Shown in pieces: positions 1 through 5,136 of a stretch of DNA of 5,136 nucleotides (positions are counted from its first letter, which is position 1; the number at the start of each line of letters is the position of its first letter). A program made the position numbers and the translations under genes. This stretch comes from a virus. Location: the IMG/VR virus record IMGVR_UViG_3300020030_000229, positions 1-5,136 of that record; one strand, given 5' to 3'. Below the pieces are notes generated by a model. That model was not told the origin of the DNA. It saw only the letters and a list, made by a program, of their open reading frames with translations, and did not search any database.

Positions 1-121
1 GAGGGGAGTTTGACTGCTTATGATGACCGTGCCGCAGATACTCCGGCTTTGTATGCTAATCTCCCTAATGTCTCTAATAGTTTCACTGCTATTATGGATT
101 GGTTCGGAGACACGTTTTTTA
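1..121. repeat. Terminal redundancy, copy 1 (identical to 5016-5136); signature of a circular-genome assembly
   Basis: Direct comparison by eye: gaggggagtttgactgcttatgatgacc...ggagacacgtttttta occurs at both ends in the same orientation, 121/121 identical. Confidence 0.95.
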
Positions 122-339
122 TTGAACGTACTGAGACGGTGCATAAATCCGGGTATACGTCTGAAAGGTATTCCTATAACAGTTCGACCCAACTTATTCA
201 GCTTCCTTATGAGGAAGATTCCACTACTACATCTCAAGTTCTCAACCCGCAGGCTTGCGTTTCTGCTTTGCTTGTTGTCCTTGTCTTTGTCACTACTGTT
301 ACTTGGATTAAAAACGCGATTTGGGGGCGCATGAGCTAA
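1..339 (+). CDS. 3' part of the same wrap-around gene (continuation of 4743..5015); ends at TAA 337-339
   Basis: Frame 1 from nt 1 (gag ggg agt ttg act...) equals the track ORF 10..339. The track's TTG start at 10 is an artefact of linearisation. The C-terminus ACVSALLVVLVFVTTVTWIKNAIWGRMS is a single TM helix followed by basic residues. Confidence 0.75.
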   Translation, partial: EGSLTAYDDRAADTPALYANLPNVSNSFTAIMDWFGDTFFIERTETVHKSGYTSERYSYNSSTQLIQLPYEEDSTTTSQVLNPQACVSALLVVLVFVTTVTWIKNAIWGRMS

Positions 340-452
340 TGGATGTTCTTCCTTTGCAGTATTGTTTCGGTATTTTCTCTGTACCCGAAATTGGCTATTT
401 TATTATCTTCGCCGCTGTTTTCTCTATGTTGGTTCTCCTGTTCCGTCCGTGA
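339..452 (+). CDS. 37-aa hydrophobic protein (pVII/pIX-like small virion or membrane protein candidate)
   Basis: The ATG at 339 overlaps the upstream TAA (TAATG). Hand translation gives MDVLPLQYCFGIFSVPEIGYFIIFAAVFSMLVLLFRP, ending at TGA 450-452. It is below the size cutoff of the ORF track. The rival frame 343..540 gives a Cys/Phe-rich sequence that does not look protein-like. Confidence 0.45.
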   Translation: MDVLPLQYCFGIFSVPEIGYFIIFAAVFSMLVLLFRP

Positions 453-553
453 CAGGTGCCATAAATATTTCTATGAAAGGATGATGACTTCAGGGCGCTT
501 CTTCTTCTATTCTCGCAACGCTGCTTTCCTTGGTCGGTGAGTTTTTCACCTCG

Positions 554-682
554 ATGATTACTTGGATGGGTCAGCTCATTGATTTCTATGAGTCTCAGCC
601 AATTCTCCTCGTCTTCGTGATTCTCACTATTGCGGGCATCGTTCTCCGTGTTCTTCGCCGCTGGATTCCCGGCCGTAGTTAA
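554..682 (+). CDS. 42-aa major-coat-protein candidate (Pf3-style, no leader); start codon uncertain
   Basis: Hand translation gives MITWMGQLIDFYESQPILLVFVILTIAGIVLRVLRRWIPGRS. It has an acidic N-terminus (D, E), a roughly 16-residue hydrophobic helix and a basic C-terminus (R, RR, R), which is the classic inovirus coat layout. Stop is TAA 680-682, followed at once by an intrinsic terminator, as after gene VIII in Ff. Only a weak GGTGAG lies 12 nt upstream of the ATG at 554. The frame stays open back to 488 with no canonical start (see findings). Confidence 0.5.
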   Translation: MITWMGQLIDFYESQPILLVFVILTIAGIVLRVLRRWIPGRS

Positions 683-688
683 TGGCTA

Positions 689-737
689 GAGAAAACGCCG
701 CCGACCATTTTTAATGGTCGGCGACGTTTTCTCATTT
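689..737 (+). terminator. Long hairpin / intrinsic terminator between the coat-like gene and the assembly ATPase gene
   Basis: 689-709 (GAGAAAACGCCGCCGACCATT) pairs with 713-733 (AATGGTCGGCGACGTTTTCTC). That is a 21-bp stem with one C.A mismatch and a TTT loop. The GC-rich core is flanked by AAAA (692-695) and TTTTCTCATTT (727-737), the architecture of a bidirectional rho-independent terminator. Confidence 0.6.
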
Positions 738-754
738 GGAAAGGATTGTATGTT

Positions 755-1378
755 ATGCTTTATGGTATCCTTATCTTTTGCATTTGCTGGCTTTTTGTTT
801 ATATCGATAACTATTGCAAAAACCCCTATAAGTTGGAAGCTGTTGTTGGTTCAAAAGGCTCTGGCAAGTCTCTGTATATGTCTCGTGTTGCTGATAGGTG
901 GCTTCGTTCTAATAAGGGGCTTATCTATAGTAATATGGGTATTGGTTATGAGTTAGAGCCGGAATATTGGAAACAGACCTTTGTCCCTGATTCCCTTATT
1001 CTTATTGATGAGATAGGCGTTTTGCACTCTAACCGTGATTTTAAGACTATGCCCCGAGATGCAGTTGAGTTTTTCAAAATGCAGCGTAAGTATCACCTTA
1101 CGATTATTGTATCGTCTCAGACTATGGATTTTGACAAAAAAATTCGTGATCTCTGCGACCGTATTTACCTTTGTAACCGCATTGGCTGGTTCTGTCGTCT
1201 CACTCCTTATCGCTCCTGCATTGCTATGGAACATCGCCCCGAGGGAGGACAAGAGCTTGTCAACACGGTGCGCAAGGCAGGGCGGGCACGGTGGTATACC
1301 ATTCCCAAGTCCGTGAAGCGGGTCAGTGCCTTAGAATACGATACAGAGCAGGTTATTAGCAAGTCCCCTTCCAAGTAA
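755..1378 (+). CDS. Zot / pI-like P-loop NTPase (filamentous-phage assembly ATPase), short form with an N-terminal hydrophobic segment
   Basis: Walker A is GSKGSGKS and Walker B is LILIDE(IG), with spacing as in the Zot/gene I family. The in-frame ATG at 755 lies 9 nt after GGAAAGGA (738-745). The track's start at 746 is a TTG too close to that Shine-Dalgarno. The N-terminus MLYGILIFCICWLFVYI is hydrophobic. Stop is TAA 1376-1378. Confidence 0.8.
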   Translation: MLYGILIFCICWLFVYIDNYCKNPYKLEAVVGSKGSGKSLYMSRVADRWLRSNKGLIYSNMGIGYELEPEYWKQTFVPDSLILIDEIGVLHSNRDFKTMPRDAVEFFKMQRKYHLTIIVSSQTMDFDKKIRDLCDRIYLCNRIGWFCRLTPYRSCIAMEHRPEGGQELVNTVRKAGRARWYTIPKSVKRVSALEYDTEQVISKSPSK

Positions 1379-1385
1379 AAAAAAA

Positions 1386-1435
1386 CTTCCCCCCGTGCCC
1401 TTTAGGGTTAGGGGGGTTGTTTTTTTTATTTTTTT
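1386..1435 (+). terminator. Rho-independent terminator after the ATPase gene (bidirectional architecture)
   Basis: CCCCCC (1389-1394) pairs with GGGGGG (1411-1416). There is an inner CCCT/AGGG helix and a 3x3 internal loop. An A-run (1377-1385) precedes it and TTGTTTTTTTTATTTTTTT follows. Confidence 0.7.
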
Positions 1436-1470
1436 AAAATCTCGAGAAATTTTTGATTTTTTGGGGAAAC

Positions 1471-1641
1471 TTCGCAGGCAGTTGCCACGTTTAGTCACGC
1501 GATAGCGTCTCCACCGCGTCCCCCGTCTCCGCAAGGGCAAAGCCCTTGCCCTTCCAAAACATGCTGGTAGGGGCTTCCGACATGTAGTGTCTGCCGTGAC
1601 GGCGGGAGCCGGTGGGCGTGCGTGTAATACGCCCACCTTTT
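1471..1641 (+). other. GC-rich, hairpin-dense, ORF-free intergenic island: candidate replication origin(s) and packaging signal, and/or a structured small RNA
   Basis: Hand count gives 105 G+C in 170 nt (62%), set in an otherwise T-rich genome. Hairpins: GCAAGGGC-AAA-GCCCTTGC (1531-1549, 8 bp perfect); CTGCCG-TGA-CGGCGG (1591-1605); GGTGGGCGT-(9 nt)-ACGCCCACC (1611-1637, 9 bp perfect). CGTCTCC occurs as a direct repeat at 1506-1512 and 1524-1530. No + strand ORF longer than 8 codons starts at an ATG here. Confidence 0.55.
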
Positions 1642-1650
1642 ATTAATTTT
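1611..1650 (+). terminator. Strong terminator-like hairpin at the 3' edge of the GC island
   Basis: A 9-bp perfect GC-rich stem (1611-1619 / 1629-1637) has a 9-nt loop GCGTGTAAT and is followed by TTTTATTAATTTT. The T-tract is on the + strand side only. Confidence 0.6.
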
Positions 1651-1653
1651 CTC

Positions 1654-1682
1654 TTGACAGCTCCTTCATATTGTGGTAACAT
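1654..1682 (+). promoter_or_regulatory. Near-consensus sigma70-type promoter for the rep-ssb operon
   Basis: TTGACA (1654-1659), a 17-nt spacer, then an extended -10 TGgTAACAT (TG at 1674-1675, hexamer at 1677-1682). The predicted transcription start is near 1689. Confidence 0.65.
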
Positions 1683-1715
1683 TTAGCCATGGAAATGAAA
1701 GGTGGTTTTTTTCAT

Positions 1716-2852
1716 ATGAAAACGGTTGTTAAGCTTGATTATGCTACGTTCGCTTTTGAGCATGGTTCAATTTCTATTTCCGAAATCGAAGATGCTCTTG
1801 CTCAGTGCGACTTACATTTTTCGCAGACTTCCAACGCAAGTGAGAATTCCCCATACAATTCCCCTGCGGGCCTTTTCTTTAAGCCGAACAACGGCGCGAA
1901 ACAGTCTCCGCACTCCTTGCAAGTGTCTGGTTATGGTTGTGAGCTTTTCCGTCCCACATTGCCGCGTCTCGCGTCACTGATGCAGGATGGTCATGAATTT
2001 GGCCACTTTTCCCGTCTTGATTTTTGTTTTGATGTTGTTATGACTAAGCAACGTTGGCGCGAGTTCTATTTAGGTGTTATTTCTGCTTCTGTCGATGAAA
2101 TGAATTACCCTGAAAAAGCCCGTAAGGTTCGCAAGTTCATGTATCAAGGTTATGGTGATTCTACTACTGTTTATATCGGTCGTAGAACTTCATCAGCGGT
2201 TTTCTGCCGTATCTATAATAAATCTTTGCAAGACCCTGAAAAGAAGCTCTGTACGGCTTCTGGTGAGTTTCTGGATTGTCCTGATGATTCCTATATTATT
2301 CGTTACGAGATTGAATTTAAATTTACTTCGCGTGTACGTTCTGGTTCTCGTTCCGTCTATGACCCGTCTCCGCTTTTCTGGTTTTATTATGAAGACCCTG
2401 AAAAGCTTTTCTCCTATCTCCGTAAAGTCTGGAATCGTTACGGAAATGATATTCTTCTTCCCGATGGTTGGGAAGATATGCAGTTCGTGACTGATATTGA
2501 TGCGCGCGGAATTCATTACACTGATGACTTTTTGCATCCCCTTAGTGATGATCTTGCTAAGAAATTTTCCGTTTCTATCCATACCGAAGAACAAAAGATG
2601 TCTTATGTCGTAAATATTTTTGGTCATCGTATCATTGATATTTTGCTTTATCGTCCTGAGTTGCTTTTCCTCGCTTGTTGCAAGTGGGAGCAGTTCTATA
2701 ATGAGCGTCTTCCGTTCTCACCTCTTGCGCTTGCACAGGAAGTCGCCCAGTTCTCTGAATCCTCGCGCATTGCCGTTGAGGAATTCCATGAAGTTGCTGA
2801 TGACCCTTCTCCCTTTAGTGAAGTCGGGTTTGATGATATATCTTTATTCTAA
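1716..2852 (+). CDS. Rolling-circle replication initiator, Rep_trans-like family (pT181 RepC / phage replication initiation factor type)
   Basis: Motifs recalled from the Rep_trans family appear in order: N-terminal KLDYATFAF, SLQVSGYGCELF, FSRLDFCFDV, VYIGRRTSSAVFCRIYNK and IIRYEIEFK. AAAGGTGG (1698-1705) lies 10 nt before the ATG at 1716. The ATG at 1689 opening the track ORF sits at the predicted transcription start and would be leaderless. Stop is TAA 2850-2852. Confidence 0.8.
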   Translation: MKTVVKLDYATFAFEHGSISISEIEDALAQCDLHFSQTSNASENSPYNSPAGLFFKPNNGAKQSPHSLQVSGYGCELFRPTLPRLASLMQDGHEFGHFSRLDFCFDVVMTKQRWREFYLGVISASVDEMNYPEKARKVRKFMYQGYGDSTTVYIGRRTSSAVFCRIYNKSLQDPEKKLCTASGEFLDCPDDSYIIRYEIEFKFTSRVRSGSRSVYDPSPLFWFYYEDPEKLFSYLRKVWNRYGNDILLPDGWEDMQFVTDIDARGIHYTDDFLHPLSDDLAKKFSVSIHTEEQKMSYVVNIFGHRIIDILLYRPELLFLACCKWEQFYNERLPFSPLALAQEVAQFSESSRIAVEEFHEVADDPSPFSEVGFDDISLF

Positions 2853-2870
2853 TGAAAGGATGGTCGCTTT

Positions 2871-3113
2871 ATGAAAGTTACTGTAGTTGGTAAGTCCCGC
2901 CGCGCTGGTACATCTAAGCAGGGTAAAGACTACGATTTTACTACTATCATGGCCGAATATTCGATGCGTGCAAACGATGACAATGATGGCGTGCAGGTTG
3001 ATAGAATCAATGTCGATGCTCGCATGATGCCGTATGCGCTCATTGTCGTCGGCACTACGTATGACCTTGACTTTGACCGCAACGGATATCTCCTTGGAAT
3101 CGAGGAAGTCTAA
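2871..3113 (+). CDS. Gene-V-like ssDNA-binding protein (80 aa)
   Basis: Its size and position directly after rep match gene V. The N-terminal MKVTVVGKSRRAGTSKQGKDYDF resembles Ff g5p ...TTRSGVSRQGKPYSL (shared G-S-QGK-Y pattern, from memory). AAAGGA (2855-2860) lies 10 nt upstream of the ATG. Confidence 0.65.
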   Translation: MKVTVVGKSRRAGTSKQGKDYDFTTIMAEYSMRANDDNDGVQVDRINVDARMMPYALIVVGTTYDLDFDRNGYLLGIEEV

Positions 3114-3148
3114 CTTCCTTTGTTCAAACCCAATTTCATTTCCTATGG

Positions 3149-3168
3149 GAGAGCGGTTCGCCGCTCTC
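3149..3168 (+). other. Perfect 8-bp hairpin with a TTCG (UUCG) tetraloop, 4 nt upstream of the tRNA
   Basis: GAGAGCGG-TTCG-CCGCTCTC. No T-tract follows, so it is not a canonical terminator. Confidence 0.6.
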
Positions 3169-3172
3169 ACAT

Positions 3173-3246
3173 GGCGGGGTAGTGCAATGGTCGCATGTCA
3201 CACTCTGAATGTGAAGCTGCTGGTTCGAATCCAGACCCCGCAACCA
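3173..3246 (+). tRNA. trnQ: tRNA-Gln (anticodon CUG), 74 nt, with genomically encoded CCA
   Basis: Hand-folded cloverleaf:
- Acceptor stem GGCGGGG / CCCCGCA, with G1.A72 unpaired.
- Positions 8-9 are TA.
- D stem GTGC / GCAT, with D loop AATGGTC containing GG.
- Anticodon stem TCACA / TGTGA, perfect, with loop C-T-CTG-A-A (U33 and purine 37 present).
- Variable region AGCT.
- T stem GCTGG / CCAGA, with position 49-65 G.A, and canonical T loop TTCGAAT.
- Discriminator A, then CCA. Confidence 0.85.
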
Positions 3247-3293
3247 AAACGGACTGACCTCCGTTATTCGATGTCGCGAAAGGTGGTGGCGAA

Positions 3294-4454
3294 GTGAAGA
3301 TGAAGCATCGGTGCTTGTTTAAGCGCTTCGCCGCCCTTGTCGCGGTACTGATGCTTTGTGCGTCTCTATGTGTACCTTGTTTTGCGTCAAACAATGCTTC
3401 TTCTCAAAAATGGGTCATTACTGAGCAGAAACAGTTTGCAAATGAATCTGGAACACAGTCTACTTATTTTCATGTCTCTCCATATGTCAATGGTGAGCTT
3501 TATCGCACTCGCTTTATTACGGAATGTTCTTCGATTGAATCTACTGTTTCTTTTAGCTATTATGATTGGTGGTCTCTTCCTGTAAATTACCCCGATTGGT
3601 GGCGCGCTCCTCTTCCTCTTGGTTCTCGCTCTTATATTCAGGTTGATTCCCCTCGTGTTGTCGATTGGGCTCGCACTGTTGGCTCTGATTATACTAGAGG
3701 CGAAACCCTTGACGGTACTCTTGAGTTTCTTTTAGTTAATCCGGATTATGGTTTTTCTGTTTCTCGTTCCTATACTTCCTCTGCTATGACTTTGTCTCAG
3801 GATCTTTTATTGTATCCTATTGATACTATGTCTCATGTTGAACTGACTAACGGTGCTACTCATACTCGTTCTTTAGCTAATGGTATTCGGTTTCCTAATA
3901 TCTCTTCTGATCTTAATCAGTCTGGAACAATGGCTATTGAATCTTTCTCGCAAGTAATTATGGGGTTTAATCCGTATTATTCGGCTGCGAATGAAACCCT
4001 TAATTTTTCTCTTCGTGCTATGAATGTCCTTTATAACGCCTCTTCTGATTCTCTTATTCTTTTTGTTTCTTATCCATCTTGGCACACTTATGATGCTCCT
4101 GGCAAGTATCATCTTGAAGCTACTGCTGTTGTTTCTTATTGGATTGATGCTAATAAGTTGCCAGCTGGACTTTCTGTTGGTGACGAGTTTCCCGCTAATA
4201 ATGATGCTTTTGAGAACCTCCGCGAAGATCTTCTCAAACAGTTCCCAGAAGCGTCTGATAAAGTCGAAACAGGAAAGGCTACTATTGAGGGTTGGAACGA
4301 TACTGAAACTGTTGATACTGACGTTGCATCTACCTCTATTTCGGCTCTCAATGCCTTGTTTCAGAATCTTGGCGGGTTCCTCTTCATAGTTTCTCTCATG
4401 GTTTTCGGTGCTGTTGTGCTCCGTATGTTGATTCGAAAGGCGGTCGACGGATGA
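3294..4454 (+). CDS. pIII-like minor coat / adsorption protein candidate (secreted, C-terminally membrane-anchored, 386 aa)
   Basis: The N-terminal signal peptide has a basic n-region (KMKHRCLFKR), a hydrophobic core (FAALVAVLMLCASLCV) and a CFA/S cleavage-like site. The C-terminal TM plus basic tail is LGGFLFIVSLMVFGAVVLRMLIRKAVDG. This is the topology of inovirus pIII. AAAGGTGG (3279-3286) lies 7 nt before the GTG at 3294 and 13 nt before the in-frame ATG at 3300, so either could be the start. Confidence 0.65.
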   Translation: MKMKHRCLFKRFAALVAVLMLCASLCVPCFASNNASSQKWVITEQKQFANESGTQSTYFHVSPYVNGELYRTRFITECSSIESTVSFSYYDWWSLPVNYPDWWRAPLPLGSRSYIQVDSPRVVDWARTVGSDYTRGETLDGTLEFLLVNPDYGFSVSRSYTSSAMTLSQDLLLYPIDTMSHVELTNGATHTRSLANGIRFPNISSDLNQSGTMAIESFSQVIMGFNPYYSAANETLNFSLRAMNVLYNASSDSLILFVSYPSWHTYDAPGKYHLEATAVVSYWIDANKLPAGLSVGDEFPANNDAFENLREDLLKQFPEASDKVETGKATIEGWNDTETVDTDVASTSISALNALFQNLGGFLFIVSLMVFGAVVLRMLIRKAVDG

Positions 4455-4582
4455 CTTTTCTTGATTTTTTTAAATCAGTTTTCGGCCTTTTCGGTTCTGG
4501 TGGTGCTCTCGTTATTGCCGTTGTTGTTTTCCTTGTCGGCCTCGGTATTTATAAGTTCGTAAAGGATTGGTTGCCATGGTAG
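4451..4582 (+). CDS. 43-aa single-TM protein (second coat-like, or pVI-like, candidate)
   Basis: The ATG at 4451 overlaps the upstream TGA (ATGA). AAAGG (4436-4440) lies 10 nt upstream. Hand translation gives MTFLDFFKSVFGLFGSGGALVIAVVVFLVGLGIYKFVKDWLPW, ending at TAG 4580-4582. It is below the ORF-track size cutoff. Confidence 0.55.
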   Translation: MTFLDFFKSVFGLFGSGGALVIAVVVFLVGLGIYKFVKDWLPW

Positions 4583-4743
4583 ATTTTGTTTCCGCTCTTG
4601 GCGTTTTTACCTCGTTTATTGCCAATGTGCTTTCTATTTCCTTTTTTGGCTTCGGTACTTTTGGCAACTTTATTTTGGTTTGTCTCTTGCTTTCGCTTGT
4701 TGGCTTTGTTCTCCGTGGTCTTTGGGATGGAGGTGATAGGTGA
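4576..4743 (+). CDS. 55-aa hydrophobic protein with two predicted TM segments
   Basis: The ATG at 4576 overlaps the previous stop (ATGGTAG). AAAGGA (4561-4566) lies 9 nt upstream. Hand translation gives MVDFVSALGVFTSFIANVLSISFFGFGTFGNFILVCLLLSLVGFVLRGLWDGGDR. Stop TGA 4741-4743 overlaps the next ATG. I prefer it to track ORF 4586..4777, which has a TTG start, no Shine-Dalgarno and runs into the next gene. Confidence 0.55.
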   Translation: MVDFVSALGVFTSFIANVLSISFFGFGTFGNFILVCLLLSLVGFVLRGLWDGGDR

Positions 4744-5136
4744 TGGAAGTCCCTGCTATTATCAAAACTTGGGTTGATTCTGACGGTGTCACTGTATATA
4801 CAGTTCGCTATAAAGATGGTAGTACTTGTGATATGACCGTGCAGCAGTATGATTATCTCAAGGCGTCTGCGCAGGCTGTCGCCGATATGGACGCTAAAGG
4901 CGATCCTGAATCTCAGCCGGAAGAAACTCCTCCTCCCTCTGAGCCTGCGCAGAACATTACCGAAAGTCCAGATCTCCGTGACGGCTATGTGCCGCAGGAA
5001 GAAGAATTACCTTTCGAGGGGAGTTTGACTGCTTATGATGACCGTGCCGCAGATACTCCGGCTTTGTATGCTAATCTCCCTAATGTCTCTAATAGTTTCA
5101 CTGCTATTATGGATTGGTTCGGAGACACGTTTTTTA
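4743..5136 (+). CDS. 5' part of a wrap-around gene for a 203-aa tail-anchored protein of unknown function (possible minor virion or assembly protein)
   Basis: The ATG at 4743 overlaps the upstream TGA (TGATG). A GGAGGTGA Shine-Dalgarno at 4729-4736 lies 6 nt upstream. The frame is open to the window end, so the ORF track missed it for lack of a stop. Hand translation gives MEVPAIIKTWVDSDGVTVYTVRYKDGSTCDMTVQQYDYLKASAQAVADMDAKGDPESQPEETPPPSEPAQNITESPDLRDGYVPQEEELPFE..., a non-hydrophobic, protein-like composition. 5016 minus 4743 is 273 nt (91 codons), so the frame joins frame 1 of position 1. Confidence 0.75.
   Translation, partial: MEVPAIIKTWVDSDGVTVYTVRYKDGSTCDMTVQQYDYLKASAQAVADMDAKGDPESQPEETPPPSEPAQNITESPDLRDGYVPQEEELPFEGSLTAYDDRAADTPALYANLPNVSNSFTAIMDWFGDTFF
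5016..5136. repeat. Terminal redundancy, copy 2 (identical to 1-121)
   Basis: Same as copy 1. Both copies lie inside one reading frame, so this is a linearisation overlap and not a biological LTR or ITR. Confidence 0.95.

Follow-up and report, generated by a model that had tools for sequence, protein, structure and literature searches.

The stretch analysed here is the 5,136-nucleotide (nt) IMG/VR virus record IMGVR_UViG_3300020030_000229, positions 1 to 5,136 (hereafter the window). It is the circular contig of a small inovirus and carries a transfer RNA (tRNA) gene with the anticodon CUG. This tRNA is encoded by the phage, resembles an initiator tRNA and probably serves to begin synthesis of the major coat protein, without methionine, at a private non-AUG codon, CAG. 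Two lines of comparative evidence carry this reading: the codon at the start position of the coat gene is complementary to the tRNA anticodon, in the window and in its relatives, and the acceptor end of the tRNA has the signature of bacterial initiator tRNAs. Related genomes and prophages are referred to below by locus numbers beginning with L.

The coat gene and its matched codon

The leader of the coat gene consists of a Shine-Dalgarno (SD) sequence, GAAAGGA, followed by TGA TGA, CTT and CAG (coordinates of all features are given in Table 1). The CAG codon was invariant in 37 of 37 genomes of the clade, and the next four to six codons vary freely. No canonical start codon (ATG, GTG or TTG) was found to be conserved upstream of the ILATLLS segment in these 37 genomes, the TTG at position 530 of the window being unconserved. 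Nor does the coat gene of the window have an ATG, GTG or TTG that would be usable. The distance from SD to CAG is that of other starts in the window: AAAGG is followed by 10 nt and CAG, just as it is followed by 10 nt and ATG in orf43, orf58 and zot. In the segment 5' of the first in-frame ATG, codon position 3 varies in 12 of 15 columns, and positions 1 and 2 in 6 and 4, respectively. This third-position variation in the coat frame indicates that the segment before the first ATG is translated. In the window genome, the coat gene is the only site at which an SD sequence and CAG open an open reading frame (ORF) of at least 35 codons.

The coat product was predicted by AF2 to form a single long kinked helix (residues 4-58, pLDDT 85). 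It has a basic C-terminus and no signal peptide. Searches of Pfam, of PDB sequences and with Foldseek gave no match, so its assignment as a coat protein rests on architecture: the single helix, the synteny just upstream of the assembly ATPase and a homologous family in relatives are those of inovirus coat proteins. With the ORF called from TTG 530, no matching PHROGs family was found. Gene callers do not call the gene in relatives, and both the coat gene and the tRNA are unannotated in the public records of the clade (GenBank MT135288-MT135309); these records carry the label 'UNVERIFIED', and the proteins they list are called A, C, F and H. When coat-protein alignments were used as queries for further loci, the first was too divergent and a narrower one returned 2 loci; Zot alignments were used successfully.

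Two other ways of beginning the coat frame were considered and rejected. A +1 frameshift from an ATG inside the SD region would place that ATG 0-3 nt from the SD sequence, and it has no conserved slippery site. For most lineages, a cryptic canonical start in the codon just before the matched one was also rejected. Diverse codons occupy this place (CTT, TTT, CAT, CCG, TCT, TCG, CCT, TTA, TTC, ATT, CTG and TTG), mostly ones that are not start codons, and thus a cryptic upstream start provides no general explanation.

The pairing of a CAG coat start with a tRNA(CUG) was seen in about 10 lineages. In L077, L096 and L084 the coat gene with SD and CAG lies directly after the tRNA, and the same combination was found in L066, L095, L131, L135, L004/L005, L007 and L191/L192/L196. 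In an Intestinimonas prophage, the tRNA is followed by AAAGGAGGAG and then by TGA CCG CAG, after which a 58-codon frame encodes a typical inovirus coat protein; the first canonical start of this frame lies 42 codons in. Other related phages have different anticodons on this tRNA scaffold, and the codon at the coat start position switches to match. GAG occurs with tRNA(CUC) in L177, L178, L181, L182, L184 and L187 (leader GAAAGAAGG-ttttatt-GAG); the tRNAs of these 6 loci have a Glu-type D arm and the acceptor stem CGCGGGA...UCCCGCA-A-CCA. CAA occurs with tRNA(UUG) in L263 (leader AAAGAAGG-aattttg-CAA), where the tRNA lies right after Rep and has C1xA72 and A73. ACG occurs with tRNA(CGU) in L260 (leader GAAAGGAG-N11-ACG; G1xA72), and ACA with tRNA(UGU) in L265 (leader GAAAGAAGG-tatttta-ACA). 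Counting CAG/CUG, five matched pairs of start codon and anticodon were found in total. The tRNA(UUG) on the same acceptor end was predicted from a truncated contig with CAA (L168) and then found in L263.

Relatives without a tRNA on the phage strand have coat genes with an SD sequence and ATG or GTG. These include L146/L147 (L147 is circular), L148, L162/L163 and L186, the complete tRNA-less relatives with Rep L268, L272 and L274, and many long tRNA-less metagenomic contigs. An Rfam search of the phage strand of these controls revealed no hidden tRNA. The window leader tatGAAAGGATGATGA recurs in L162 and L163, with ATT ATG in place of the CTT CAG of the window. The loci with an ACG coat gene L164, L165, L167 and L171 were not counted as controls because they are probably truncated rather than tRNA-less.

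Several other arrangements of start-position codons were observed. The adsorption gene that directly follows the tRNA in L131 and L135 likewise has an SD sequence, 7-10 nt and CAG, preceded by an in-frame stop (on the tRNA strand near nt 5146 in L131, and at 4322-4400 in L135), and two genes appear to use a CAG start in this lineage. Tandem coat paralogues, the first with SD and CAG and the second with SD and ATG, are present in L004 (4284-4685) and L007 (3724-4131); L171, L165 and L167 have a similar coat pair with ACG and ATG. In L173/L176 (GAAAGAAGG-N7-TAG GAA) and in L254/L258 (TAA GAA) the coat start position is taken by a stop codon, and all available contigs of these loci break inside the adsorption gene, before the expected tRNA site.

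The tRNA and its acceptor end

A sequence-only reading of the window had proposed a complete tRNA-Gln(CUG), and this claim was borne out. ARAGORN called tRNA-Gln(ctg) at exactly the coordinates of the gene in Table 1, and the Rfam tRNA model (RF00005) matched it at 49 bits (E=1.5e-8; gathering score 29). All of the details listed in that reading are present: the unpaired G1.A72, A73, the encoded CCA, U33, a purine at 37 (A37), GG in the D loop and a canonical T loop (TTCGAAT). The anticodon loop, CUCUGAA, has the U33 and purine 37 of an elongator tRNA-Gln; C37 was found in 7 of 42 related copies. The sequence-only reading was also right to flag position 1-72 and A73 as marks of a non-textbook tRNA in an inovirus of about 5 kb without an integrase. 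The thermodynamic z-score of the single window tRNA is unremarkable (-0.71), and support for the tRNA therefore comes from covariance models and comparative data. Among 8 aligned copies, double-sided changes were found in 10 of 21 base pairs; none of 500 shuffles equalled this, and slid controls collapsed.

The tRNA is conserved in the clade. It is carried as tRNA(CUG) by 7 of 7 porcine 'Inovirus sp.' relatives in GenBank (76-91% identity of the tRNA segment) and was found in 30 of 32 IMG/VR relatives, the two without it being truncated contigs; the tRNA is no assembly join with host DNA, the possibility that the sequence-only reading had raised. An ARAGORN-based tally over 275 sequences placed CUG tRNAs of the window type at 64 loci, in related inovirus genomes and prophages that have the gene at the same position. 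A second, highly divergent type of tRNA(CUG) occupies the same site beside Reps that are ~94% identical, and it retains the anticodon and the odd acceptor end (L027, L028, L029, L038 and L039 compared with the window; about 70% identity between the two tRNA types). The coexistence of two types beside such similar Reps suggests that the tRNA is evolving very fast or is exchanged by recombination. In L036 (1578-1646) the tRNA has a D-loop deletion and was given the anticodon 'actg' by ARAGORN; the coat gene keeps CAG, and either this tRNA copy is decaying or its sequence contains an error. Immediately behind tRNA(CUC), L184 (about 4550-4630), L187 (4706-4787) and L199 (1076-1157) have a second, odd tRNA-like gene. 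It matches the Rfam tRNA model at 43.9 bits and has G1:C72, a long variable arm and an 8-nt anticodon loop, for which ARAGORN gave the 4-base anticodon 'gcac'. A codon-usage study of E. coli phages noted tRNA genes in none of the single-stranded DNA (ssDNA) phage genomes examined (PMC4032129), and searches of the literature turned up no inovirus tRNA.

The acceptor end sets this tRNA apart from tRNA-Gln of cells. Among 42 distinct inovirus CUG tRNAs, positions 1 and 72 are never paired (G.A in 27, C.A in 15), position 73 is A, and the next pairs are nearly invariant (G2:C71 in 42/42, C3:G70 in 41/42 and G4:C69 in 41/42). When phage loci with CUG, CUC, UUG and CGU anticodons were taken together, G.A, C.A or A.A was found at 1x72 in 71 of 72, with U:A in L265. 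The closest cellular family is the tRNA-Gln(CUG) of the PVC group, which shares the D arm GGUGUAAUGGUAGCAC, G2:C71, C3:G70, A73 and an encoded CCA. It differs from the phage tRNA, to which it is 58-70% identical, in having U1:A72 and C4:G69, and did so in 50 of 50 distinct cellular copies that share the D arm. The window tRNA lacks the paired U1:A72 of an elongator tRNA-Gln and, with its mismatched 1x72, is not an ordinary tRNA-Gln.

The same acceptor end is found in initiator tRNAs. Bacterial tRNA-fMet has a 1x72 mismatch, G2:C71, C3:G70, G4:C69 and A73, as the phage tRNA does. G2:C71, C3:G70 and A73 are determinants of formylation, and the 1x72 mismatch also keeps the initiator tRNA off EF-Tu. 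The C1:A72 mismatch is the element read by formyltransferase and by initiation factor 2 (IF2) (bioRxiv 10.1101/524249). The host initiator tRNA present in L081 reads CGCGGCG...UCGGG-CUCAUAA-CCCGG...CGCCGCA-A-CCA, and the acceptor stem of the L004/L005 phage tRNA is identical to that of this host initiator. When 179 tRNAs were scanned for the acceptor signature, it matched only phage tRNAs, the PVC type and the L081 host tRNA-fMet. The proposed use of the phage tRNA, pairing in the P site with a start codon positioned by an SD sequence, is likewise that of tRNA-fMet. Unlike tRNA-fMet, the phage tRNA is virus-encoded and combines an elongator body of the Gln/Glu type with an anticodon other than CAU (CUG in the window; CUC, UUG, CGU and UGU in relatives). 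It lacks methionine identity and cannot be charged by methionyl-tRNA synthetase, since its anticodon is not CAU. The phage tRNA is not a member of the tRNA-fMet family because its anticodon, the G:C pairs of its anticodon stem and its 11:24 pair (U11:A24) all depart from it.

The closest functional parallel is provided by engineered tRNAs. An E. coli initiator tRNA carrying the anticodon CUA was shown to initiate at UAG with 50-60% of the efficiency of AUG and to be charged mainly with glutamine (bioRxiv 10.1101/524249). A further engineered non-AUG initiator is i-tRNA(AAC) (10.1101/2021.05.25.445580). Like the phage system, both join an initiator acceptor stem to a changed anticodon and a complementary non-AUG start; they are laboratory constructs on a full tRNAfMet body, whereas the phage system is natural, has an elongator-like body and is paired with a specific essential viral gene. 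Phage elongator tRNAs, which act in codon compensation or in the evasion of anticodon nucleases, share the carriage of a tRNA gene by a phage, but they are known from double-stranded DNA (dsDNA) phages, whereas the tRNA described here belongs to an ssDNA inovirus of 5 kb, has an initiator-type end and matches one special codon instead of codon usage as a whole. In recoded gut phages, suppressor tRNAs read TAG as Gln; they are similar in that a phage tRNA alters codon reading in structural genes. Suppression takes place during elongation at internal stops, and the window has no in-frame stops to suppress. The phage tRNA thus differs from both compensation and suppressor tRNAs because its special codon is a start codon.

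Taken in order, the proposed mechanism would run as follows. The tRNA would be transcribed with the rep operon and excised from the transcript; its T(-1), its CCA and the flanking hairpins fit processing by RNase P. It would then be aminoacylated, presumably with Gln, the amino acid mainly attached to the engineered amber initiator, whose acceptor stem is the same. Its acceptor end copies that of the host initiator at the 1x72 mismatch, G2:C71, C3:G70 and A73, and on this account the tRNA may be treated as an initiator, that is, formylated and/or bound by IF2 and kept off EF-Tu. The last step would be P-site pairing with CAG, 10 nt 3' of the coat SD sequence.

Genome context and hosts

The window has a terminal redundancy of 121 nt, giving a unit of 5,015 nt with a G+C content of 44%. 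Every gene lies on the + strand, and no integrase was found among them. The gene set comprises a Rep of the Rep_trans family, an RstB-like ORF of 80 amino acids (aa), the tRNA, an adsorption-like ORF, small hydrophobic ORFs and a Zot-like ATPase. Homologues of the 80-aa ORF are present in prophages. The best sigma-70-like promoter lies before rep, and from it the tRNA would be transcribed together with the surrounding genes.

Table 1. Features of the window, with positions counted from its first nucleotide
Feature	Position	Strand	Remarks
Shine-Dalgarno sequence of the coat gene	475..481	+	GAAAGGA
Two in-frame stops	482..487	+	TGA TGA; close the coat frame upstream
Proposed coat start codon	491..493	+	CAG; complementary to the tRNA anticodon
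Major coat protein gene	491..682	+	63 codons; QGASSSILATLLSLVGEFFTSMITWMGQLIDFYESQPILLVFVILTIAGIVLRVLRRWIPGRS; third-position variation, AF2 helix, homologues
Zot-like assembly ATPase	755..1378	+	
Best sigma-70-like promoter	1654..1682	+	TTGACA-17-TAACAT with TG; ahead of rep
Rep, rolling-circle initiator of the Rep_trans family	1716..2852	+	ORF from 1689; probable start ATG 1716
80-aa ORF, putative ssDNA-binding protein	2871..3113	+	weakly RstB-like (phrog_929, E=8.6e-4); directly 5' of the tRNA
Perfect 8-bp hairpin	3149..3168	+	GAGAGCGG-TTCG-CCGCTCTC; UUCG tetraloop; 4 nt 5' of the tRNA
tRNA 5' leader	3169..3172	+	ACAT, ending in T(-1)
tRNA gene, anticodon CUG	3173..3246	+	anticodon at 3205-3207; ARAGORN, Rfam, covariation
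Hairpin	3248..3265	+	AACGGA-CTGACC-TCCGTT; just 3' of the tRNA; conserved in many relatives
Adsorption-like protein, 386 aa	3300..4454	+	signal peptide and C-terminal anchor; canonical ATG start

The tRNA is flanked by hairpins. At the site of the upstream one, L001-L003 and L006 have a different, equally perfect hairpin, GGCCGC-TYCK-GCGGCC. The window hairpin is not a classical terminator because it has no T-run, and it possibly forms the protected 3' end of the rep-orf80 mRNA once the tRNA is excised. Of 42 distinct phage tRNAs, 40 are immediately preceded by T, which would fit an RNase P substrate.

The interval between zot and rep (1380-1690) consists of 310 nt of non-coding sequence with G+C-rich hairpins and has terminator-like sites at 1397-1417 and 1611-1637. 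It contains a TAGCGT motif (1503-1508), reminiscent of the CS-6 element of ssoA-type single-strand origins in Gram-positive rolling-circle plasmids. The interval probably holds the replication origins and the packaging signal.

The hosts were approached by a degenerate tRNA pattern scan of one genome per bacterial species, which returned 90 loci in two classes. The PVC-group class consists of native tRNA-Gln(CUG) genes with the window-type D arm, A73, U1:A72 and the acceptor stem UGCCGGA. The Oscillospiraceae class consists of 11 matches with the phage-type C1/G1xA72 mismatch, including the isolates Intestinimonas massiliensis Marseille-P3064 and Oscillibacter sp. MSJ-31. These Oscillospiraceae copies lie inside integrated inovirus-like elements with Rep, tRNA, structural genes and Zot, and this order is kept even where the Rep family differs. 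The location of the tRNA within such elements indicates that the hosts are Oscillospiraceae and that the tRNA is internal phage cargo rather than an attachment (att) site. One Zot homologue is labelled as coming from an Oscillospiraceae metagenome-assembled genome. The pattern scan found neither the PVC-type tRNA as a native gene in Oscillospiraceae hosts nor a host tRNA identical to the phage tRNA. Around the Intestinimonas element, the search for att repeats gave only short repeats at chance level, none of which involves the tRNA. In the window clade, none of 286 Rep homologue clusters lies on a contig longer than 5.7 kb.

Other observations were made at further loci. The integrated relatives L254-L274 carry a recombinase with HTH_38 and rve domains (IS30-like DDE) immediately after Zot on the opposite strand, which is presumably their integrase and is absent from the window. 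In L211, two type II hammerhead ribozyme matches above the Rfam gathering score (6403-6469 and 7120-7186, + strand) lie within an inovirus-like prophage region. L169 has an Rfam 'ssNA-helicase RNA' motif at 2888-2929 (+ strand; 45 bits against a threshold of 41.5).

Weighing the explanations and their meaning

Several observations weigh against the tRNA being an initiator for the coat gene. The three consecutive G:C pairs of the initiator anticodon stem (29:41, 30:40 and 31:39) are missing; the window has A:U, C:G and A:U, and a GGG/CCC stem occurs in no phage copy. In E. coli these G:C pairs matter for P-site binding (bioRxiv 10.1101/524249). The 11:24 pair is U:A in all phage copies, whereas the initiator has A:U, and in the L265 tRNA positions 1 and 72 pair as U1:A72 and position 73 is C. 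The scaffold also occurs with the anticodon CUA, in L266 and L267, where the tRNA lacks one nucleotide at position 73; yet the coat genes of these loci have an SD sequence and ATG, and no ORF with SD and TAG was found for this tRNA. In L172, L263 and L255 the matched codon is immediately preceded by an in-frame TTG, which lies 4 nt 3' of the SD sequence and could be the real start; L083 is ambiguous, an upstream ATG being possible. Contigs with CAG, CAA, ACG, TAG or TAA that are truncated at the expected tRNA site are neutral evidence. The nominal probabilities, 1.9e-17 and, by a Fisher test, 1e-8 (with a control count, 20, that is approximate), are illustrative only and overstate significance, because the lineages share ancestry. 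The support throughout is comparative sequence analysis.

The most conventional alternative is an ordinary elongator tRNA-Gln(CUG), a codon supplement of the kind that large dsDNA phages carry, which would boost the reading of CAG codons inside genes. CAG does outnumber CAA in the window (32 against 10) and makes up 61% of the Gln codons of the clade, the anticodon is invariant, and the D and T arms resemble those of cellular PVC-type tRNA-Gln. The preference for CAG, however, falls within a general bias for G over A at third positions (CTG 75%, CCG 70%). CAG decoding, one of the roles suggested by the sequence-only reading, therefore stands for the single CAG at the coat start and falls for codon usage. 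An elongator also leaves unexplained the universal 1x72 mismatch, where cellular homologues have U1:A72, as well as the missing coat start and the five-way covariation of codon and anticodon; the C37 of some copies would be unusual in an elongator. This explanation is considered improbable. Slightly less probable still is a regulatory pairing between anticodon and leader, T-box-like or through another form of tRNA-mRNA sensing that opens the ribosome-binding site, with translation then begun by another route. T-box leaders, common in Firmicutes, are characterized by covariation between a specifier codon and an anticodon, and the covariation seen here would fit. Against this, the window contains no T-box (RF00230) or other Rfam leader at E<=1, the leader is only about 40 nt long, and the matched codon stands at the exact SD-start spacing, in the coat frame and directly after stops. 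Regulatory pairing would also leave the gene with no alternative start codon and the initiator-like acceptor end unexplained. That the tRNA is chiefly a processing signal, where RNase P and RNase Z cut between the replication and structural modules and decoding is irrelevant, is judged unlikely as a full explanation. The tRNA does lie between these modules in an apparently single transcription unit, with T(-1), the encoded CCA and conserved flanking hairpins, but a pure processing signal requires neither the constancy of the anticodon and its covariation with a codon far away nor an acceptor stem of the initiator type. Such a role may coexist with that of an initiator and cannot replace it.

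The remaining alternatives concern the DNA. The sequence-only reading had considered that the tRNA could be host-derived sequence marking an integration site, and together with a chimeric assembly with host DNA this is effectively refuted. Some inoviruses integrate at tRNA genes (PMC8530359), and distant relatives of the window are integrated in Oscillospiraceae chromosomes. Nevertheless, the marks of a phage attachment site (an integrase, an identical host tRNA segment and a location at prophage junctions) were not found. The window has no integrase, the tRNA lies between Rep and the structural genes inside prophages, it is full-length, shows compensatory evolution and is carried at 64 independent loci, and contigs of the window clade never exceed 5.7 kb. 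The cellular tRNAs of this type found outside prophages belong only to the PVC group and have a different acceptor stem. Least probable of all is that the packaged strand folds into a DNA cloverleaf serving as minus-strand origin or packaging signal. The gene does lie on the packaged (+) strand of an ssDNA phage, but it is conserved in the manner of a tRNA (T loop, D loop, anticodon and CCA), and the G+C-rich zot-rep interval is a better candidate for an origin. The structural or priming role on ssDNA that the sequence-only reading had offered likewise fails to account for an anticodon that stays invariant within a changing stem and covaries with a codon 2.3 kb away.

If the tRNA is indeed an initiator, its purpose may be a private translation channel for the most abundant protein, control of coat synthesis through the level of the tRNA, or a defined non-methionine N-terminus on a coat protein without a signal peptide; each is a possibility. 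A more speculative and rather doubtful extension is that initiation of the coat gene, and sometimes of the adsorption gene, is an orthogonal lock-and-key system in which the pair switches rapidly among close relatives (CAG, GAG, CAA, ACG, ACA and possibly UAG/UAA) under diversifying selection, in conflict among phages or between phage and host.

If true, the initiator reading would describe the first natural dedicated non-methionine initiator tRNA acting at a non-AUG, non-near-cognate start found in literature searches, and the first functional tRNA reported in an ssDNA phage. Nature would already be using the "orthogonal initiator" design that synthetic biology has engineered, and the known pairs would be ready-made orthogonal combinations of initiator and start codon for Gram-positive hosts. 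The reading would also explain why gene callers miss the coat gene of inoviruses that are very common in the human and pig gut, and it would provide an annotation rule, by which the anticodon of the phage tRNA gives the start codon. Across the family, anticodon and start codon change together, from CAG/CUG to ACA/UGU, which suggests a natural, virus-encoded system for starting translation without methionine.

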